Part shown: positions 1,290 to 9,488 of the stretch, piece by piece | Layout: every line of letters starts with the position of its first letter | Position numbering within the stretch: the stretch's first letter is position 1 | Origin: Naegleria gruberi | Taxonomy: Eukaryota | Direction: 5' to 3' (one strand) | DNA length: 9,488 bases | NCBI GenBank assembly: GCA_000004985.1 | Contig: GG739036.1 | Notes under the pieces: model-generated | Databases searched by the model: none | What the model saw: only the letters and a program-made list of their open reading frames with translations | What the model was told of the DNA's origin: nothing | Position numbers and translations under genes: made by a program

Positions 1290-2357
1290 TTAAACAATTT
1301 GACAAATTAAAATCAAATCATGATATGATTTTGGGAATGGTTTGATTGGTGATTTCTTTCTTGGTGGTCCAATATGTGGATATTGTTGGAAATCAAATGG
1401 AACATCTCCTTCATATCCAAGTACATCTCCAATTCCAGCAATTATTTTCATATTTCCGTTCTTGAAAATCTTTCTTACGCAATGATTATAGTGGTCAGCA
1501 AAATAAACTTGATTTTTTGAATCAACAAATATTCCTGTTGGCCAACAAAGTTTTGTTCTTGTTGCTAATTTAAAATCTCCATTATATCCTTTTTTTCCTG
1601 GAATTCCTGCAATGTTTTTGATGATTCCATTGGGTAATATCTTTCTTATCACATGATTGTCTAAATCTGAAAAGTAAATTTCATCATTGTGAACAAAGAG
1701 AGAGTCAGGGTTGTTCAAACTTGTATCAGTGGCATTCCTTCTATCTCCATTGTATCCTTCAATTCCATTTCCTGCAATTGTGTGGATAATTCCATTTCTA
1801 TCAATTTTTCTAATCCTATTACTGAAGGAATCTGCAATGTAAATTTCATCTTTGTATTGAAATACACTACTAGGGTATCTCAATGAAGCCAATGTTGCCA
1901 ATTGATTATCTCCGTTGTATGTCATAATTCCATTTCCAGCAATTGTGCGGATGATGCCATTTCTATCAATCTTTCTCACACGATGATTTCTTTTATCACA
2001 AAATAATACTTCATCATTGTCAGTAATAAAAAGACCACAAGGAGAGTTCAATTTTGTATTTACAGCCAATTGATCATCTCCATTGTATTCTGTTTCATAT
2101 GTTCCGGCAATTTTTGAAATGATTCCAAATTCATCAATCTTGAAAATCAAATTACGTTCACCTTCCGAAATATAAACTTGATTTGATGATGAAACAACAA
2201 TAGAAGATGGATCATACAATGATCCACGCTCATTTCCTGCAATTGTTACAATTTGACCATTCCGAAGCAATTTTCTCACTCGATCATTACCCGTATCAGC
2301 AATAAATACTTCGTCATTTGAAACAAAAACGGCACTTGGACGATTGAGGTTTGACAT
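1290..2357 (-). CDS. Intact gene for an NHL-repeat six-bladed beta-propeller protein (355 aa). It has no N-terminal RING, B-box or coiled coil and no signal peptide.
   Basis: Single uninterrupted ORF with an ATG at 2355-2357 in an A-rich context (caaaaaaATGtc) and a TAA stop at 1290-1292. The translation contains six tandem units of about 47-55 aa, each of the form [PS]xx[IVL]FVxx(D/N)(E/Q)[IV][YF][IF][AS]DxxN(H/D)R[IV]RK[IL]xxNGxIxTIAG followed by a G(Y)NGDxxxAT..L..P linker. This is the NHL repeat signature (NCL-1/HT2A/LIN-41 family propeller). Blade starts in the protein: AVFVSNDEVFIADTGNDRVRKLL, SSIVVSSSNQVYISEGERNLIFKI, PCGLFITDNDEVLFCDKRNHRVRKI, PSSVFQYKDEIYIADSFSNRIRKI, PDSLFVHNDEIYFSDLDNHVIRKI, PTGIFVDSKNQVYFADHYNHCVRKI. 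On the minus strand, TTTATT/AATAAA lies about 45 nt downstream of the stop (plus coordinates about 1240-1252). Confidence 0.8.
   Translation of the reverse strand: MSNLNRPSAVFVSNDEVFIADTGNDRVRKLLRNGQIVTIAGNERGSLYDPSSIVVSSSNQVYISEGERNLIFKIDEFGIISKIAGTYETEYNGDDQLAVNTKLNSPCGLFITDNDEVLFCDKRNHRVRKIDRNGIIRTIAGNGIMTYNGDNQLATLASLRYPSSVFQYKDEIYIADSFSNRIRKIDRNGIIHTIAGNGIEGYNGDRRNATDTSLNNPDSLFVHNDEIYFSDLDNHVIRKILPNGIIKNIAGIPGKKGYNGDFKLATRTKLCWPTGIFVDSKNQVYFADHYNHCVRKIFKNGNMKIIAGIGDVLGYEGDVPFDFQQYPHIGPPRKKSPIKPFPKSYHDLILICQIV
1761..1813 (-). repeat. Copy 1 of an intragenic tandem DNA repeat: NHL blade 4 coding segment, about 89% identical to 1926-1978.
   Basis: aattccatttcctgcaattgtgtggataattccatttctatcaatttttct (1761-) aligns with aattccatttccagcaattgtgcggatgatgccatttctatcaatctttct (1926-), about 47 of 53 identical. 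The offset is 165 nt, i.e. 55 codons, exactly one blade. The encoded peptides are RIRKIDRNGIIHTIAGNGI versus RVRKIDRNGIIRTIAGNGI. Confidence 0.6.
1926..1978 (-). repeat. Copy 2 of the intragenic tandem DNA repeat: NHL blade 3 coding segment.
   Basis: See the partner repeat at 1761-1813. Nucleotide identity is far higher than between the other blades, implying a recent blade duplication or gene conversion. Confidence 0.6.
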
Positions 2358-3164
2358 TTTTTTGATGGTTGTGAACGAACCTGTTGATCATTCAATCCAC
2401 ATTTTTGAGTGTTGGATATATATTCTGTGAATGTTTGAATATTCTTCACAATCATCCCTTCACAAATACACCTTTACACTAATGAATCTGAATAGGAGGG
2501 AACACCAGACAATTAACTCTGTGCCCTGTAGAACTTTGATATATTTGAGTAAGATTCCATTGACAATGTGAAACAGTCAATCGCCTTTTCATAATCACAA
2601 GCATTCCTGTATGGCCATTCCATTAAGAAAATTGTAAAAGGATTTGATCTTCTCTTTTGTTCCCCAAATTGGATTAAGATTGACAATAGTCTTAATATTA
2701 ATATCTTTTGTTATATCTATAGAAGCTAATAGGTTCAAAGCAGAATGATTATTACCATTAGAAATATCAATCAAAGCCTTTACCAAAATACAAATCAACT
2801 CAACTTCTGGGCTACCGATTACACAACAAGTCAAGGTCCTTAATTGAATCAGTCAATGATAATGGAATATTAACGGAAAGCCTGTCAGGAATATGACGAC
2901 TATCCCGCGATTCATGTCATGGTATTTTGGAACTTGAAGTACATTAGACATCATAACGTAGTGTGTTGAATCTTCAGAGTAGTTTAAAAAAAGAATAATA
3001 CCATAATGAAGTGAATTTAAAACAAACTGAAGGTTAGAGAGCTTGTGAAATTGAATTGTATTTGAGGCATGTAGTGTAATTCTAACATCACGATCAGCTC
3101 ATTTCTCTGAAGTGTTGGTGGCGAAACTCCACCCATGCCTTTTTACTTCATGAAGTAAAAAAAA

Positions 3165-3827
3165 ATGTCTGAAGAAGTACGTTCGTGTAGTGTTTCCTTC
3201 TGTCATCGGTCAACCAAAACACTTGTCAGAAATGTCCGAATTCTACGTTGGAGATGAAGCTCAATCAAAACGAGGTCTATTAAATTTGAGAAATCCAATC
3301 AATCAAGGAATTGTCAATAATTGGGATGATATGGAAAGGATTTGGTTTCATACTTTTTACAATGAATTGAGAGTTGTTTTGAGGAATATCCAATATTGAT
3401 GAGTGAAGTTGCGTTGAATCTCAAGACAAATAGAGAGATGATGTCACAAGTCATGTTTGAAAAATTTTGTGTGCCAGCTCTGTATGTTGCTAATAGAGCT
3501 GTCTTGGCATTGTACGCTTCTGGAAAAAGTACTGGAATGATTGTGAATTCTGGAGATTCTGTCACTCATGCCGTTCCTATTTATGAAGGTCATACTCTGC
3601 CACATGCCATTTTGAAAATGGAAATGAAAATGTTAACAGAAAGAGGATACACTTTCACTAACACTGCTGAAAGAGAAATAGATCGTAAAGAAAAGCTCTG
3701 TTACCTTGCTCTCTATTTTCAAGAGGAAATGAATTCGGTTGTAAGAGAGGAACCAACCATTGATAGAAAATTGTATGATATACCAAAGGGTAATGTTGTC
3801 ACTCTTGGGAATGAAAGATTCAGATGA
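3165..3827 (+). pseudogene. Actin-derived pseudogene: N-terminally deleted, frameshifted, internally deleted and C-terminally truncated.
   Basis: ATG at 3165 in the context aaaaaaaaATGtct, reading MSEEV (compare actin M-x-DEEV). Frame +1 from about 3181 then reads [64 protein letters not shown], which corresponds to actin [69 protein letters not shown]. About 22 codons are missing ([22 protein letters not shown], the phosphate-1 loop), and the deletion length is not a multiple of three. At 3375-3380 'gtt gtt tt gag gaa' replaces the expected 6 nt for Ala-Pro, a 1-nt frameshift. Frame 0 then continues [117 protein letters not shown]...[12 protein letters not shown]. Relative to actin this lacks AGRDLTDYLM (10 aa) and VRDI is reduced to DR. 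A TGA at 3825-3827 ends homology at about actin residue 210, and no CPEALFQPSFLG follows. Confidence 0.75.
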
Positions 3828-3833
3828 ACATTT

Positions 3834-3839
3834 AAAAAA
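3834..3839 (-). terminator. RNA polymerase III oligo-T terminator of the 5S rRNA gene (T6 on the minus strand).
   Basis: The plus strand reads aaaaaa at 3834-3839, immediately 3' on the minus strand of the 5S end ...GCTGTAGTCTTTGC. A T-run of at least 4 on the coding strand is the canonical pol III termination signal. Confidence 0.55.
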
Positions 3840-3962
3840 GCAAAGACTACAGCACCACAGGTTCCCAAGTTGTCTCCAACCTCAGTACTGATGTGGCTCG
3901 ACGATGCTTAACTTCTCAAATCGGACGGGATGAGGTGTATTCATCGTGATATGGCCGTAGCC
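3840..3962 (-). rRNA. 5S ribosomal RNA gene, complete and about 120 nt long. Not in the ORF track.
   Basis: The minus-strand sequence is GGCTACGGCCATATCACGATGAATACACCTCATCCCGTCCGATTTGAGAAGTTAAGCATCGTCGAGCCACATCAGTACTGAGGTTGGAGACAACTTGGGAACCTGTGGTGCTGTAGTCTTTGC. It matches the eukaryotic 5S consensus throughout: the 5' GGCTACGGCCATA-CAC start, box A (GAAGTTAAGCA-CGTCG at about +45-62), box C (TCAGTACTGAGGTTGGAGAC...CTGGGAA at about +70-100), and the 3' GGTGCTGTAG-CTTT end. Helix I closes, with 5' GGCUACGGC pairing to 3' GCUGUAGUC through G-U wobbles. It is followed by an oligo-T terminator. Confidence 0.9.
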
Positions 3963-3985
3963 ATCATTTATCTTAATTCTTAGTA
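3963..3985 (-). promoter_or_regulatory. Conserved 5'-flanking block upstream of 5S copy 1, a possible upstream promoter element, with a TATA-like tract (TTTTTATAC) further upstream.
   Basis: On the minus strand, TACTAAGAATTAAGATAAATGAT sits immediately 5' of the 5S start. It is conserved in copy 2 with 2 mismatches in 23 (TACAAAGAATTGAGATAAATGAT), whereas sequence further upstream diverges by indels. TTTTTATAC lies at about -25 to -33 on the minus strand (plus coordinates about 3986-3995). That 5S genes in some eukaryotes use upstream elements is established knowledge; a function here is inferred. Confidence 0.3.
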
Positions 3986-4144
3986 TAAAAACAATCTCAT
4001 AACACTCATCAAGCAATTACTGATAATCCTTTATTTATTCAAAACCAATTGTTCAGCCACTGAATTTGTACTATCAATATGTTTCGTGTTTTAAAGTAAT
4101 TAAGGAAGGCGTGCTAATGTTGTTATCTTAATAAATGGGTTGAC

Positions 4145-4347
4145 CTAACATTTAAGTTTATCAAAAACCATCTTCCCATTTTGTGGTAAAGCTAATTCAA
4201 GTGCATTGAAACCCTTCGAATAAATCACCTTTTCTAATTTTGGTAATTTTAATAAAGATTCCAATCCAAACTGATCTATTTCAGCATATTTGATGGAGAG
4301 TTTCTTAATAGACTCAAATTTAGAGAAATGTTCTGCTAATTCATTGG
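4145..4347 (-). CDS. 3' end of a leucine-rich-repeat-like protein gene. It is partial, with the 5' part lost in the assembly gap.
   Basis: A 67-codon open frame on the minus strand ends at a TAG (plus coordinates 4145-4147). The translation (N to C) is ...NELAEHFSKFESIKKLSIKYAEIDQFGLESLLKLPKLEKVIYSKGFNALELALPQNGKMVFDKLKC*. It shows LxxLxxLxxL / LxL spacing typical of LRR or RNI-like C-terminal regions. The open frame is long for a sequence this AT-rich. The opposite-strand frame is full of TAA codons. Confidence 0.5.
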
Positions 4348-7300
4348 NNNNNNNNNNNNNNNNNNNNNNNNNNNNNNNNNNNNNNNNNNNNNNNNNNNNN
4401 NNNNNNNNNNNNNNNNNNNNNNNNNNNNNNNNNNNNNNNNNNNNNNNNNNNNNNNNNNNNNNNNNNNNNNNNNNNNNNNNNNNNNNNNNNNNNNNNNNNN
4501 NNNNNNNNNNNNNNNNNNNNNNNNNNNNNNNNNNNNNNNNNNNNNNNNNNNNNNNNNNNNNNNNNNNNNNNNNNNNNNNNNNNNNNNNNNNNNNNNNNNN
4601 NNNNNNNNNNNNNNNNNNNNNNNNNNNNNNNNNNNNNNNNNNNNNNNNNNNNNNNNNNNNNNNNNNNNNNNNNNNNNNNNNNNNNNNNNNNNNNNNNNNN
4701 NNNNNNNNNNNNNNNNNNNNNNNNNNNNNNNNNNNNNNNNNNNNNNNNNNNNNNNNNNNNNNNNNNNNNNNNNNNNNNNNNNNNNNNNNNNNNNNNNNNN
4801 NNNNNNNNNNNNNNNNNNNNNNNNNNNNNNNNNNNNNNNNNNNNNNNNNNNNNNNNNNNNNNNNNNNNNNNNNNNNNNNNNNNNNNNNNNNNNNNNNNNN
4901 NNNNNNNNNNNNNNNNNNNNNNNNNNNNNNNNNNNNNNNNNNNNNNNNNNNNNNNNNNNNNNNNNNNNNNNNNNNNNNNNNNNNNNNNNNNNNNNNNNNN
5001 NNNNNNNNNNNNNNNNNNNNNNNNNNNNNNNNNNNNNNNNNNNNNNNNNNNNNNNNNNNNNNNNNNNNNNNNNNNNNNNNNNNNNNNNNNNNNNNNNNNN
5101 NNNNNNNNNNNNNNNNNNNNNNNNNNNNNNNNNNNNNNNNNNNNNNNNNNNNNNNNNNNNNNNNNNNNNNNNNNNNNNNNNNNNNNNNNNNNNNNNNNNN
5201 NNNNNNNNNNNNNNNNNNNNNNNNNNNNNNNNNNNNNNNNNNNNNNNNNNNNNNNNNNNNNNNNNNNNNNNNNNNNNNNNNNNNNNNNNNNNNNNNNNNN
5301 NNNNNNNNNNNNNNNNNNNNNNNNNNNNNNNNNNNNNNNNNNNNNNNNNNNNNNNNNNNNNNNNNNNNNNNNNNNNNNNNNNNNNNNNNNNNNNNNNNNN
5401 NNNNNNNNNNNNNNNNNNNNNNNNNNNNNNNNNNNNNNNNNNNNNNNNNNNNNNNNNNNNNNNNNNNNNNNNNNNNNNNNNNNNNNNNNNNNNNNNNNNN
5501 NNNNNNNNNNNNNNNNNNNNNNNNNNNNNNNNNNNNNNNNNNNNNNNNNNNNNNNNNNNNNNNNNNNNNNNNNNNNNNNNNNNNNNNNNNNNNNNNNNNN
5601 NNNNNNNNNNNNNNNNNNNNNNNNNNNNNNNNNNNNNNNNNNNNNNNNNNNNNNNNNNNNNNNNNNNNNNNNNNNNNNNNNNNNNNNNNNNNNNNNNNNN
5701 NNNNNNNNNNNNNNNNNNNNNNNNNNNNNNNNNNNNNNNNNNNNNNNNNNNNNNNNNNNNNNNNNNNNNNNNNNNNNNNNNNNNNNNNNNNNNNNNNNNN
5801 NNNNNNNNNNNNNNNNNNNNNNNNNNNNNNNNNNNNNNNNNNNNNNNNNNNNNNNNNNNNNNNNNNNNNNNNNNNNNNNNNNNNNNNNNNNNNNNNNNNN
5901 NNNNNNNNNNNNNNNNNNNNNNNNNNNNNNNNNNNNNNNNNNNNNNNNNNNNNNNNNNNNNNNNNNNNNNNNNNNNNNNNNNNNNNNNNNNNNNNNNNNN
6001 NNNNNNNNNNNNNNNNNNNNNNNNNNNNNNNNNNNNNNNNNNNNNNNNNNNNNNNNNNNNNNNNNNNNNNNNNNNNNNNNNNNNNNNNNNNNNNNNNNNN
6101 NNNNNNNNNNNNNNNNNNNNNNNNNNNNNNNNNNNNNNNNNNNNNNNNNNNNNNNNNNNNNNNNNNNNNNNNNNNNNNNNNNNNNNNNNNNNNNNNNNNN
6201 NNNNNNNNNNNNNNNNNNNNNNNNNNNNNNNNNNNNNNNNNNNNNNNNNNNNNNNNNNNNNNNNNNNNNNNNNNNNNNNNNNNNNNNNNNNNNNNNNNNN
6301 NNNNNNNNNNNNNNNNNNNNNNNNNNNNNNNNNNNNNNNNNNNNNNNNNNNNNNNNNNNNNNNNNNNNNNNNNNNNNNNNNNNNNNNNNNNNNNNNNNNN
6401 NNNNNNNNNNNNNNNNNNNNNNNNNNNNNNNNNNNNNNNNNNNNNNNNNNNNNNNNNNNNNNNNNNNNNNNNNNNNNNNNNNNNNNNNNNNNNNNNNNNN
6501 NNNNNNNNNNNNNNNNNNNNNNNNNNNNNNNNNNNNNNNNNNNNNNNNNNNNNNNNNNNNNNNNNNNNNNNNNNNNNNNNNNNNNNNNNNNNNNNNNNNN
6601 NNNNNNNNNNNNNNNNNNNNNNNNNNNNNNNNNNNNNNNNNNNNNNNNNNNNNNNNNNNNNNNNNNNNNNNNNNNNNNNNNNNNNNNNNNNNNNNNNNNN
6701 NNNNNNNNNNNNNNNNNNNNNNNNNNNNNNNNNNNNNNNNNNNNNNNNNNNNNNNNNNNNNNNNNNNNNNNNNNNNNNNNNNNNNNNNNNNNNNNNNNNN
6801 NNNNNNNNNNNNNNNNNNNNNNNNNNNNNNNNNNNNNNNNNNNNNNNNNNNNNNNNNNNNNNNNNNNNNNNNNNNNNNNNNNNNNNNNNNNNNNNNNNNN
6901 NNNNNNNNNNNNNNNNNNNNNNNNNNNNNNNNNNNNNNNNNNNNNNNNNNNNNNNNNNNNNNNNNNNNNNNNNNNNNNNNNNNNNNNNNNNNNNNNNNNN
7001 NNNNNNNNNNNNNNNNNNNNNNNNNNNNNNNNNNNNNNNNNNNNNNNNNNNNNNNNNNNNNNNNNNNNNNNNNNNNNNNNNNNNNNNNNNNNNNNNNNNN
7101 NNNNNNNNNNNNNNNNNNNNNNNNNNNNNNNNNNNNNNNNNNNNNNNNNNNNNNNNNNNNNNNNNNNNNNNNNNNNNNNNNNNNNNNNNNNNNNNNNNNN
7201 NNNNNNNNNNNNNNNNNNNNNNNNNNNNNNNNNNNNNNNNNNNNNNNNNNNNNNNNNNNNNNNNNNNNNNNNNNNNNNNNNNNNNNNNNNNNNNNNNNNN

Positions 7301-8463
7301 NNNNNNNNNNNNNNNNNNNNNNNNNNNNNNNNNNNNNNNNNNNNNNNNNNNNNNNNNNNNNNNNNNNNNNNNNNNNNNNNNNNNNNNNNNNNNNNNNNNN
7401 NNNNNNNNNNNNNNNNNNNNNNNNNNNNNNNNNNNNNNNNNNNNNNNNNNNNNNNNNNNNNNNNNNNNNNNNNNNNNNNNNNNNNNNNNNNNNNNNNNNN
7501 NNNNNNNNNNNNNNNNNNNNNNNNNNNNNNNNNNNNNNNNNNNNNNNNNNNNNNNNNNNNNNNNNNNNNNNNNNNNNNNNNNNNNNNNNNNNNNNNNNNN
7601 NNNNNNNNNNNNNNNNNNNNNNNNNNNNNNNNNNNNNNNNNNNNNNNNNNNNNNNNNNNNNNNNNNNNNNNNNNNNNNNNNNNNNNNNNNNNNNNNNNNN
7701 NNNNNNNNNNNNNNNNNNNNNNNNNNNNNNNNNNNNNNNNNNNNNNNNNNNNNNNNNNNNNNNNNNNNNNNNNNNNNNNNNNNNNNNNNNNNNNNNNNNN
7801 NNNNNNNNNNNNNNNNNNNNNNNNNNNNNNNNNNNNNNNNNNNNNNNNNNNNNNNNNNNNNNNNNNNNNNNNNNNNNNNNNNNNNNNNNNNNNNNNNNNN
7901 NNNNNNNNNNNNNNNNNNNNNNNNNNNNNNNNNNNNNNNNNNNNNNNNNNNNNNNNNNNNNNNNNNNNNNNNNNNNNNNNNNNNNNNNNNNNNNNNNNNN
8001 NNNNNNNNNNNNNNNNNNNNNNNNNNNNNNNNNNNNNNNNNNNNNNNNNNNNNNNNNNNNNNNNNNNNNNNNNNNNNNNNNNNNNNNNNNNNNNNNNNNN
8101 NNNNNNNNNNNNNNNNNNNNNNNNNNNNNNNNNNNNNNNNNNNNNNNNNNNNNNNNNNNNNNNNNNNNNNNNNNNNNNNNNNNNNNNNNNNNNNNNNNNN
8201 NNNNNNNNNNNNNNNNNNNNNNNNNNNNNNNNNNNNNNNNNNNNNNNNNNNNNNNNNNNNNNNNNNNNNNNNNNNNNNNNNNNNNNNNNNNNNNNNNNNN
8301 NNNNNNNNNNNNNNNNNNNNNNNNNNNNNNNNNNNNNNNNNNNNNNNNNNNNNNNNNNNNNNNNNNNNNNNNNNNNNNNNNNNNNNNNNNNNNNNNNNNN
8401 NNNNNNNNNNNNNNNNNNNNNNNNNNNNNNNNNNNNNNNNNNNNNNNNNNNNNNNNNNNNNNN
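4348..8463. other. Assembly gap: 4116 consecutive N.
   Basis: Uninterrupted n from 4348 to 8463. The ORFs 4290..8513 (+) and 4341..8483 (-) in the supplied track are artefacts of translating N as X. Confidence 0.97.
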
Positions 8464-8526
8464 CGACGATGCTTACTTCTCAAATCGGACGGGATGAGGT
8501 GTATTCATCGTGATATGGCCGTAGCC
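8464..8526 (-). rRNA. 5S rRNA gene, second copy. It is partial: only the 5' 63 nt are visible and the 3' part is in the gap. It has a 1-nt deletion in box A.
   Basis: The minus-strand sequence is GGCTACGGCCATATCACGATGAATACACCTCATCCCGTCCGATTTGAGAAG-TAAGCATCGTCG. It is identical to copy 1 (3899-3962) except that GTTAAGC is reduced to GTAAGC. The gap edge cuts the gene at about nt 63. Confidence 0.8.
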
Positions 8527-8549
8527 ATCATTTATCTCAATTCTTTGTA
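8527..8549 (-). promoter_or_regulatory. Conserved 5'-flanking block upstream of 5S copy 2.
   Basis: On the plus strand, atcatttatctcaattctttgta matches atcatttatcttaattcttagta at 3963-3985 in 21 of 23 positions. Further out, aaacaacctcaaacaca and aaacaatctcataacac are related, but there are indels. Confidence 0.3.
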
Positions 8550-8773
8550 TTTAATTTTTAGAATAGAAACAACCTCAAACACATTACTTAATGTTAACCT
8601 TATGTTGAATCATATTAATGGTTCCTTAAAACCTAAAGCTTAATTTCATTGTTCTTAATTGCTCGGAATTGTATTATTCCCGCCAAAAGAAAACTCTGAA
8701 CATCCTACAAAAAAAATAGCACAACTCGACAACTTCACCAATACTGTATTAATACATTAAGGTTTGATGTAAC

Positions 8774-9488
8774 ATGACCGATCGAACAAACAAGAGAGTT
8801 CATGTTGAAGGCTTGCTGAAGAGAAAGATGATTGAGGAGACCTCACAATCTGATTCTCAATTCATCAAGGGAAGCAAGGGATCTTCAAGTTTCGCTCAAC
8901 CATCAACTCCCAAGTCAACCAGAAGGAAAATCAAACAAGACAATCGTAGCAATGATATGTTTACCATTCCTAACCAATTGAAGTCTGTGTTTTACTCTCA
9001 AGAAAATTCCTATCAACCAATAAGCCTCAACTCAAAATCTTCAAAGATATTTAATTCATCTTTGCCTCCAACCTTTGCAAACTTTGGAACGATTGAACAA
9101 TCAACTAATAATCCTTTCCAATTTTCAAATCCGAATAATAACTCTATACAATATTCAGAAGATGACATCTTCCGTCCTTCTGCTCAATCAACAACATTCA
9201 CTCCAAGCAAGAGAATTGATTCATCAAACAATTCTTCTCCATTCTTTAAGAGTGCAAACTCCTTTGATTCTGATTACAATCCTACACCATTCTCTCCAAT
9301 CAAAGCACAAGGAAATATCCATAAGAATAGCCTCTTCTCAAATACACAAGCCGGCAGCTGTGGTTCTTTCGAGTTCGAAGAGCAAATCAACCAACAGGCC
9401 CATCAACCAGATACGAAATTCAATCTTTTTAGGCAACAGCAACCCCGTGAGGAAGTCGATTTATTCTCTCCTTGCAACCAAATCGTAC
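8774..9488 (+). CDS. 5'-complete, 3'-open CDS (at least 238 codons) for an S/N/Q/P-rich low-complexity, likely intrinsically disordered, protein of unknown function.
   Basis: ATG at 8774 (gtaacATGacc). There is no stop codon in frame through the window end at 9488. The translation is MTDRTNKRVHVEGLLKRKMIEETSQSDSQFIKGSKGSSSFAQPSTPKSTRRKIKQDNRSNDMFTIPNQLKSVFYSQENSYQPISLNSKSSKIFNSSLPPTFANFGTIEQSTNNPFQFSNPNNNSIQYSEDDIFRPSAQSTTFTPSKRIDSSNNSSPFFKSANSFDSDYNPTPFSPIKAQGNIHKNSLFSNTQAGSCGSFEFEEQINQQAHQPDTKFNLFRQQQPREEVDLFSPCNQIV... It contains one NPF tripeptide and several PF/FxF motifs. It is not in the ORF track, probably because it runs off the window. Confidence 0.6.
   Translation, partial: MTDRTNKRVHVEGLLKRKMIEETSQSDSQFIKGSKGSSSFAQPSTPKSTRRKIKQDNRSNDMFTIPNQLKSVFYSQENSYQPISLNSKSSKIFNSSLPPTFANFGTIEQSTNNPFQFSNPNNNSIQYSEDDIFRPSAQSTTFTPSKRIDSSNNSSPFFKSANSFDSDYNPTPFSPIKAQGNIHKNSLFSNTQAGSCGSFEFEEQINQQAHQPDTKFNLFRQQQPREEVDLFSPCNQIV

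Follow-up and report, generated by a model that had tools for sequence, protein, structure and literature searches.

A 9488-bp Naegleria gruberi scaffold, analysed here in its entirety and referred to as the window, carries at 3165–3826 on the + strand a stretch that in all likelihood is a young, non-functional, unprocessed and truncated pseudogene of a divergent N. gruberi actin. The actin-derived nature of 3165–3826 is real and far beyond chance. Its ORF piece at 3190–3396 (+) returned a Pfam Actin hit (PF00022) with an E value of 9.1e-17 (profile 29–91), the ORF piece at 3396–3824 (+) returned one with an E value of 1.8e-28 (profile 98–173 and on), and tblastn of the closest protein against the window gave an E value of 3e-101 for the actin-derived stretch, bearing out the actin homology that the original prediction had placed there on the + strand. 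Truncated unprocessed pseudogenes are already well known as a kind, and this locus is a further example. Two annotated proteins are 100 % identical to the window, namely NAEGRDRAFT_76580 (P0002, 128 aa, 'predicted protein') and NAEGRDRAFT_76579 (P0121, 355 aa, NHL-repeat). The actin fragment (+) and a 5S rRNA gene at 3844–3962 (−) are convergent. To their right, 4116 Ns at 4348–8463 make up 43 % of the scaffold and are most simply read as a scaffold gap between two contigs; because the right-hand contig begins within a 5S gene, this gap probably reflects the difficulty of assembling repeated 5S units.

A protein search with the conceptual translation of the fragment returned a single outstanding match, NAEGRDRAFT_60876 (P0001; XP_002672334; UniProt D2VU98), a 362-aa protein encoded on a 310-kb scaffold, to which the fragment shows 95.7 % amino-acid identity (199/208 aligned columns); other actins reached at most 62 %. 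Against a conventional-type actin, the identity is 62 % over 216 aligned columns, slightly lower than the 65–70 % estimated previously. The N. gruberi genome has been reported to hold 78 actins and Arps (PMC7594500), and a literature search found no paper naming NAEGRDRAFT_60876 or NAEGRDRAFT_76580.

The second member of the 90 % cluster of NAEGRDRAFT_60876 is a 372-aa protein from an ENA metagenome assembly (P0241), the gene for which is one uninterrupted ORF at 948–2066 of a 2391-bp contig (L001). This protein has an end-to-end Pfam Actin match (437 bits) and aligns over its full length with solved actins, with two oddities: its D-loop is five residues shorter, and it reads NSGDSV where actins carry DSGDGV. 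The window fragment shares both features, along with the MSEEV start, with NAEGRDRAFT_60876 and with the metagenome protein. Since the shortened D-loop and NSGDSV are common to the fragment and the intact P0241, they appear to have been inherited from the divergent paralogue and not to have arisen by decay. An intact parent or paralogue thus exists in the form of this 372-aa protein, but it belongs to a near-identical strain, and the reference model P0001 itself looks frameshifted. The parent DNA used for comparison throughout is that of L001 and not of the reference genome, and some of the differences between copy and L001, including the gaps in the 5′ flank, could be changes in the lineage of the L001 strain.

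Over the coding part, 642 of 654 ungapped aligned bases are identical to L001 (12 mismatches, 98.2 % nucleotide identity); with gaps counted, window 3183–3826 and L001 1025–1705 are 92.5 % identical. The segments and lesions are arranged as follows:

3165–3179, +, ATG and codons 2–5 (MSEEV), identical to the parent start; P0001 and P0241 both begin MSEEV

3180–3183, +, site of a deletion of net 59 nt that can be aligned as 5 + 54 nt; codons 6–26, which include the first phosphate-binding loop, are gone and the frame is shifted

3184–3376, +, parent codons 27–90 plus one base, in a frame other than that of the ATG; 192/193 bases identical to the parent

3377–3380, +, 1-nt deletion and two adjacent substitutions (parent GCTCCT to G-TTTT, codons 91–92)

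3381–3826, +, parent codons 93–252 plus TG of codon 253, holding the 30-nt and 6-nt deletions

3622/3623, +, 30-nt deletion (DLGGRDLTNYL, residues 173–183)

3681/3682, +, 6-nt deletion (V-R of REIVRDR, two residues near 203)

3825–3827, +, TGA stop at the breakpoint, composed of TG from the parent Cys253 codon TGT and a foreign A

Alignment of the parent protein and DNA over the fragment mapped these lesions and placed the earlier coordinates right within 1–2 bases: the 1-nt frameshift expected near 3375–3380 is the deletion at 3377–3380, and the in-frame deletions of 10 and 2 aa correspond to the losses of 30 and 6 nt. Two further claims needed amendment. The MSEEV match had been suspected of being fortuitous; this is not so, as the A-run, the ATG and the first five codons (window 3158–3179) are 100 % identical to the parent start at L001 941–962 (BLASTn). 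The phosphate-binding loop is indeed lost with codons 6–26, but its loss is out of frame on account of the net 59 nt, which had been missed.

Downstream, the 1-nt deletion puts reading back into the ATG frame, and the ungapped blocks of 3381–3827 are identical to the parent at 238/242, 59/59 and 138/146 positions, the last block including junction base 3827. Everything past codon 252, corresponding to the last 120 residues, is gone. When judged as a working member of Pfam Actin, the copy has a significant profile match, no continuous frame of ~375 residues and no first phosphate-binding loop (DNGSG...); from its own ATG, it encodes just 30 residues before a stop. Relative to NAEGRDRAFT_60876, therefore, the copy is without residues 6–26 and 173–183, two residues near 203 and all those after 252, and carries two frameshifts. 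Copy and parent differ in length at seven places, and in each it is the copy that has lost sequence, for a total of ~540 bp from a 1.5-kb copy with zero insertions. Splicing that restores the frame was rejected, as each lesion is sequence missing relative to the parent and not extra sequence. Reading the alignment by eye revealed no consistent pattern of microhomology at the deletion junctions.

The substitutions speak to the age of the copy. Within the covered region, P0001 and P0241 differ at two residues (V243/V244 in P0001, D/I in P0241); in both cases, the window has the residue of P0001, which belongs to the same genome. Another six amino-acid changes occur in the window alone (I33V, S103A, I116V, A164T, D216Y and E240K), alongside four silent differences. 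The pN/pS ratio is 0.39–0.52; with small counts (10–12 differences) the test is weak, and in it the ratio is indistinguishable from neutrality (p 0.13) but at odds with the strong constraint to be expected for an actin (p 0.002 under an omega of 0.05). Four deletions against ~10 substitutions in the coding part is an unusually high ratio, and it could reflect one complex event as opposed to gradual decay. Given a DNA identity of 98.2 % to an intact paralogue that has these same peculiarities, the copy is young, ~2 % diverged from its parent.

This bears directly on the view that a conventional actin copy of old date decayed slowly where it stands and was cut at about residue 210 by the arrival of the 5S gene, which we consider unlikely. 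It draws on the fragment being just 62 % identical to conventional actin and on the homology stopping 7 nt short of the 5S T-run; moreover, Naegleria seems to have its 5S genes scattered among protein-coding genes (as at the one further locus, L003, described below, and for the two copies in the window), and these genes must therefore move or duplicate somehow. However, the low identity is inherited from the intact divergent paralogue NAEGRDRAFT_60876, to which the copy is 98.2 % (DNA) and 95.7 % (protein) identical, and so the proposal that the decay is old fails. Nor do the data show decay in place: this is an ectopic copy, neither side of which is syntenic with the parent locus, and it may have been truncated from birth.

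The part of this view that concerns the 5S gene depends on the 3′ breakpoint and its surroundings, the features of which are:

3827–3833, spacer AACATTT, seven bases from breakpoint to 5S T-run, homologous to neither the actin parent nor the other 5S locus

3834–3839, −, T6 run (A6 in + orientation), lying 5 nt past the 3′ end of the 5S gene, read from the sequence

3844–3962, −, complete 5S rRNA gene (Rfam RF00001, 106 bits vs a gathering threshold of 38, E value 4.4e-23, model 1–120)

3963–3986, −, conserved element upstream of 5S, found also at 8527–8550 (−) and at L003 658–676; its sense strand is roughly AGAATTRASATAARTRRAT

8464–8550, −, second 5S copy in the same orientation, of which the 5′ 63 nt (8464–8526) and the upstream element (8527–8550) are readable, the rest lying in the N gap

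The T6 run is presumably the pol III terminator, judging from general knowledge of pol III. As predicted, the 3′ end of the actin copy adjoins it: nucleotide homology extends to 3826 and is followed by seven bases and then by A6 at 3834. The earlier placing of the end of homology at GNERFR was nearly right, in that this motif ends at 3824 and not 3825, and the distance from the end of nucleotide homology to the T-run is 7 nt and not 8. The sequence between the actin breakpoint and the 5S is TTGCTTTTTTAAATGTT, and GCAA separates A6 (3834–3839) from the 5S 3′ end at 3844.

For comparison, JGI metagenome contigs were scanned once with a 25-nt 5S pattern, which yielded one Naegleria-like locus, L003, where the 5S is 96.4 % identical to window 3844–3962. 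Only 3842–3980 is shared between the two, comprising the 5S gene, 2 nt on its 3′ side and 18 nt upstream. Similarly, the common part of the two 5S copies in the window is limited to the gene and ~24 nt upstream (BLASTn, 96.6 % for the second copy vs 3899–3986). Of the upstream element, ~18–24 nt are kept in three copies, including the one at L003, which comes from another Naegleria-like organism; the element probably serves as an upstream promoter element. At 8464–8480, the second copy has TTACTTC in place of the TTAACTTC seen in the first copy and L003; the missing base is 11 nt away from where the contig meets the N gap, and its loss may represent a low-quality read end or a real mutation.

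The conserved 5S unit therefore measures ~140–145 bp and, because 5S copies share only the gene and ~18–24 nt upstream, the actin breakpoint falls outside it. Simple insertion of such a unit is excluded: had a short 5S unit inserted into a complete actin copy, actin sequence should resume near 3990, and it does not. Neither tblastn with parent residues 254–372 nor BLASTn with parent DNA past L001 1705 found any homology on either strand of the readable window, so in the part that can be read no actin sequence resumes past the 5S gene. Parent residues 243–362, used as a protein query, retrieved just conventional actins of at most 67 % identity and no N. gruberi fragment. The suggested check of other 5S loci for the same actin fragment found no actin next to the 5S of L003, the one locus available; the 3′ side of the second window copy lies in the N gap.

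Dispersed 5S rRNA genes are known in many fungi and protists. The window 5S resembles them: it is one gene of 119 nt, equipped with a T-run and a short upstream element that is conserved, it is situated among protein-coding genes, and its flanks are not conserved between copies. It is ordinary in comparison with such genes, apart from lying so near the pseudogene breakpoint. We propose that it is a normal dispersed pol III gene, the terminator of which happens to mark a rearrangement edge. A literature search on nuclear 5S gene organisation in Naegleria found nothing. As for the cause of the truncation, we favour a duplication that was partial from the start, or a later deletion that removed the 3′ third together with the stretch before the 5S, because the copy shows many other deletions. 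In principle, a larger segment that included the 5S gene could instead have been inserted, with the missing 3′ third possibly in the N gap.

We consider the copy very likely dead, given that it has two frameshifts and is without the first phosphate-binding loop, residues 173–183 and the last 120 residues. Public annotation implies otherwise, in that NAEGRDRAFT_76580 would be a working gene making a truncated actin-like protein from an internal ORF; an ORF of 142–143 codons does survive (3396/3399–3827), and the gene model was called on it. This ORF, however, begins mid actin fold, without the N-terminal phosphate loop and the C-terminal third, carries internal deletions of 10 and 2 residues and ends in a stop codon that is an accident of the junction. 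In addition, the frames opened by upstream ATGs of the retained leader are short and lead nowhere, and 6 of the 10 polarisable or silent differences change amino acids. A working gene is thus very improbable, and the 128-aa model is, we propose, an internal ORF left in a pseudogene.

Just as improbable is an assembly artefact, in which real actin reads would have been mis-joined to a 5S repeat on a chimeric or poorly sequenced small scaffold. The scaffold is indeed small (9488 bp), with a 4116-N gap and one contig ending inside a 5S repeat, and the 1-nt deletion lies in a T-rich run where it could be a read error. However, the copy is set apart from the parent by 12 substitutions, four deletions in coding sequence and two gaps in the flank, which points to a separate locus and not to mis-assembled parent reads, and the junction falls outside the repeated part of the 5S unit, where a repeat-driven mis-join is not expected.

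The pseudogene reading also agrees with the 5′ flank, which was copied from the parent actin locus along with the coding sequence. Over 2872–3164 (+), blocks of 90–100 % identity match L001 209–947:

2872–2908, +, flank block matching L001 209–245 (BLASTn, 94.6 % over 37 nt)

2922–3161, +, flank block matching L001 592–843 (BLASTn, 90.5 % over 252 nt, gaps counted); up to the ~94-bp gap, 2922–3146 pairs with L001 592–827

3158–3164, +, flank block matching L001 941–947 (100 %)

Two gaps relative to the parent interrupt the flank, one of ~346 bp at ~2909–2921 and the other of ~94 bp at ~3147–3157. The homology spans ~0.3 kb upstream of the ATG in the window and reaches ~−740 in the parent; left of 2872 in the window, no further homology to the parent was found. 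A perfect 22-nt palindrome, TTTTTACTTCATGAAGTAAAAA, occupies 3140–3161 (self-BLASTn, 100 %), on the junction of the ~94-bp gap and just upstream of the ATG. In the parent, a tRNA-Asp(GTC) gene at L001 1–71 (−) lies ~880 bp upstream of the actin and bounds the upstream intergenic region; the duplicated piece thus has both edges near pol III genes, tRNA-Asp in the parent and 5S in the copy.

Because the homology runs into the upstream flank of the parent, the copy is a DNA-level duplicate and not a retrocopy. Origin as a processed pseudogene, by reverse transcription of an actin mRNA, can be all but dismissed: the intronless state of the fragment is uninformative as the parent ORF is also uninterrupted, whereas the homology to ~−740 lies far past any plausible 5′ UTR (assuming that the parent 5′ UTR is shorter), and the 3′ end has no poly-A and falls inside coding sequence. 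The original prediction had likewise taken the fragment for a degenerate gene copy without 3′ poly-A or target-site duplication, and here it stands, the only A-run being the complement of the 5S T-run and no direct repeats being found around the copy. In contrast to processed pseudogenes, then, the copy has the parent's upstream flank, lacks poly-A and target-site duplications and is truncated at the 3′ and not the 5′ end.

It is instead reminiscent of unprocessed, 'dead on arrival' partial duplicates, being copied as DNA with its upstream flank and disabled by frameshifts, deletions and truncation, with a substitution pattern that, on small counts, is compatible with no constraint. Unlike typical unprocessed duplicates, it has unusually many deletions for ~2 % substitution divergence, without insertions, and a 3′ breakpoint only 7 nt from a pol III terminator.

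Together, these data suggest the following course of events. A piece of ~1.5 kb, from ~−740 of the parent to codon 253 and including the flank, was copied as DNA to an ectopic site. The copy may have ended at codon 253 from the start, or may have lost its 3′ third by later deletion, in which case the same deletion-prone process may have removed the ~540 bp missing elsewhere in the copy. At present, the 3′ end of the copy is 7 nt from the T-run of a convergent, intact-looking 5S gene. A broader generalisation, that the boundaries of recent segmental duplications in Naegleria are marked by pol III genes and that its compact genome clears dead copies by a strong deletion bias, strikes us as doubtful. 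Its first half draws on the 5S terminator 7 nt from the 3′ edge and on the tRNA-Asp at ~−880 relative to a 5′ edge at ~−740, and its second on the loss, at this one locus, of about a third of the copy length at ~2 % substitution divergence.

The comparison also called the reference model of the parent into question. NAEGRDRAFT_60876 is 10 residues shorter than the metagenome protein, with SVMLCHAIL replacing a 19-residue stretch of the latter (L001 1404–1450). Removing a 28-nt GT...AG stretch and the dinucleotide AC from the L001 coding sequence yields exactly the NAEGRDRAFT_60876 sequence there, at 362 residues. Read from the protein sequence and not from the reference DNA, the model seems to use a 28-nt pseudo-intron to get across a frameshift of 2 nt, and the predicted deletion in the reference parent is CCACATGCC to CCATGCC. 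This frameshift would be either a sequencing error or a sign that the parent gene of strain NEG-M is itself broken.

Other parts of the scaffold were also inspected. The NHL-repeat gene adjoining the pseudogene (window 1290–2357, −) has an intact ORF and is 95.5 % identical, over 1189 ungapped nt, to a paralogue (P0243; L002 1218–2285) that is close to NAEGRDRAFT_76434. Homology between the two ends 36 nt before the ATG, and they differ at 52 nucleotides and 33 amino acids (pN/pS 0.92), with 18 of the 52 falling in nt 400–500. By this similarity, the NHL-repeat gene appears to be a recent duplicate itself, and the scaffold looks like a mosaic of recent duplications. An open frame at 4148–4347 (−) has a leucine-rich-repeat look (…LSIKYAEIDQFGLESLLKLPKLEKVIYSKGFNALELALPQNGKMVFDKLKC, then a stop); it runs out of the N gap and ends at ~4148. 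Pfam returned no match for the ORFs at 4148–4345 (−) and 8774–9487 (+), nor for those at 2516–2834 (−), between the NHL gene and the actin flank.

The importance of the locus lies mainly in annotation: NAEGRDRAFT_76580 would be part of a pseudogene and should be left out of protein counts, and a NAEGRDRAFT_60876 model with a hidden frameshift would likewise affect counts of the N. gruberi actin family. The locus also illustrates how a divergent paralogue can make a young pseudogene seem ancient if it is compared with a conventional family member alone. Finally, the many deletions at low substitution divergence provide a small data point on DNA loss in a compact protist genome.
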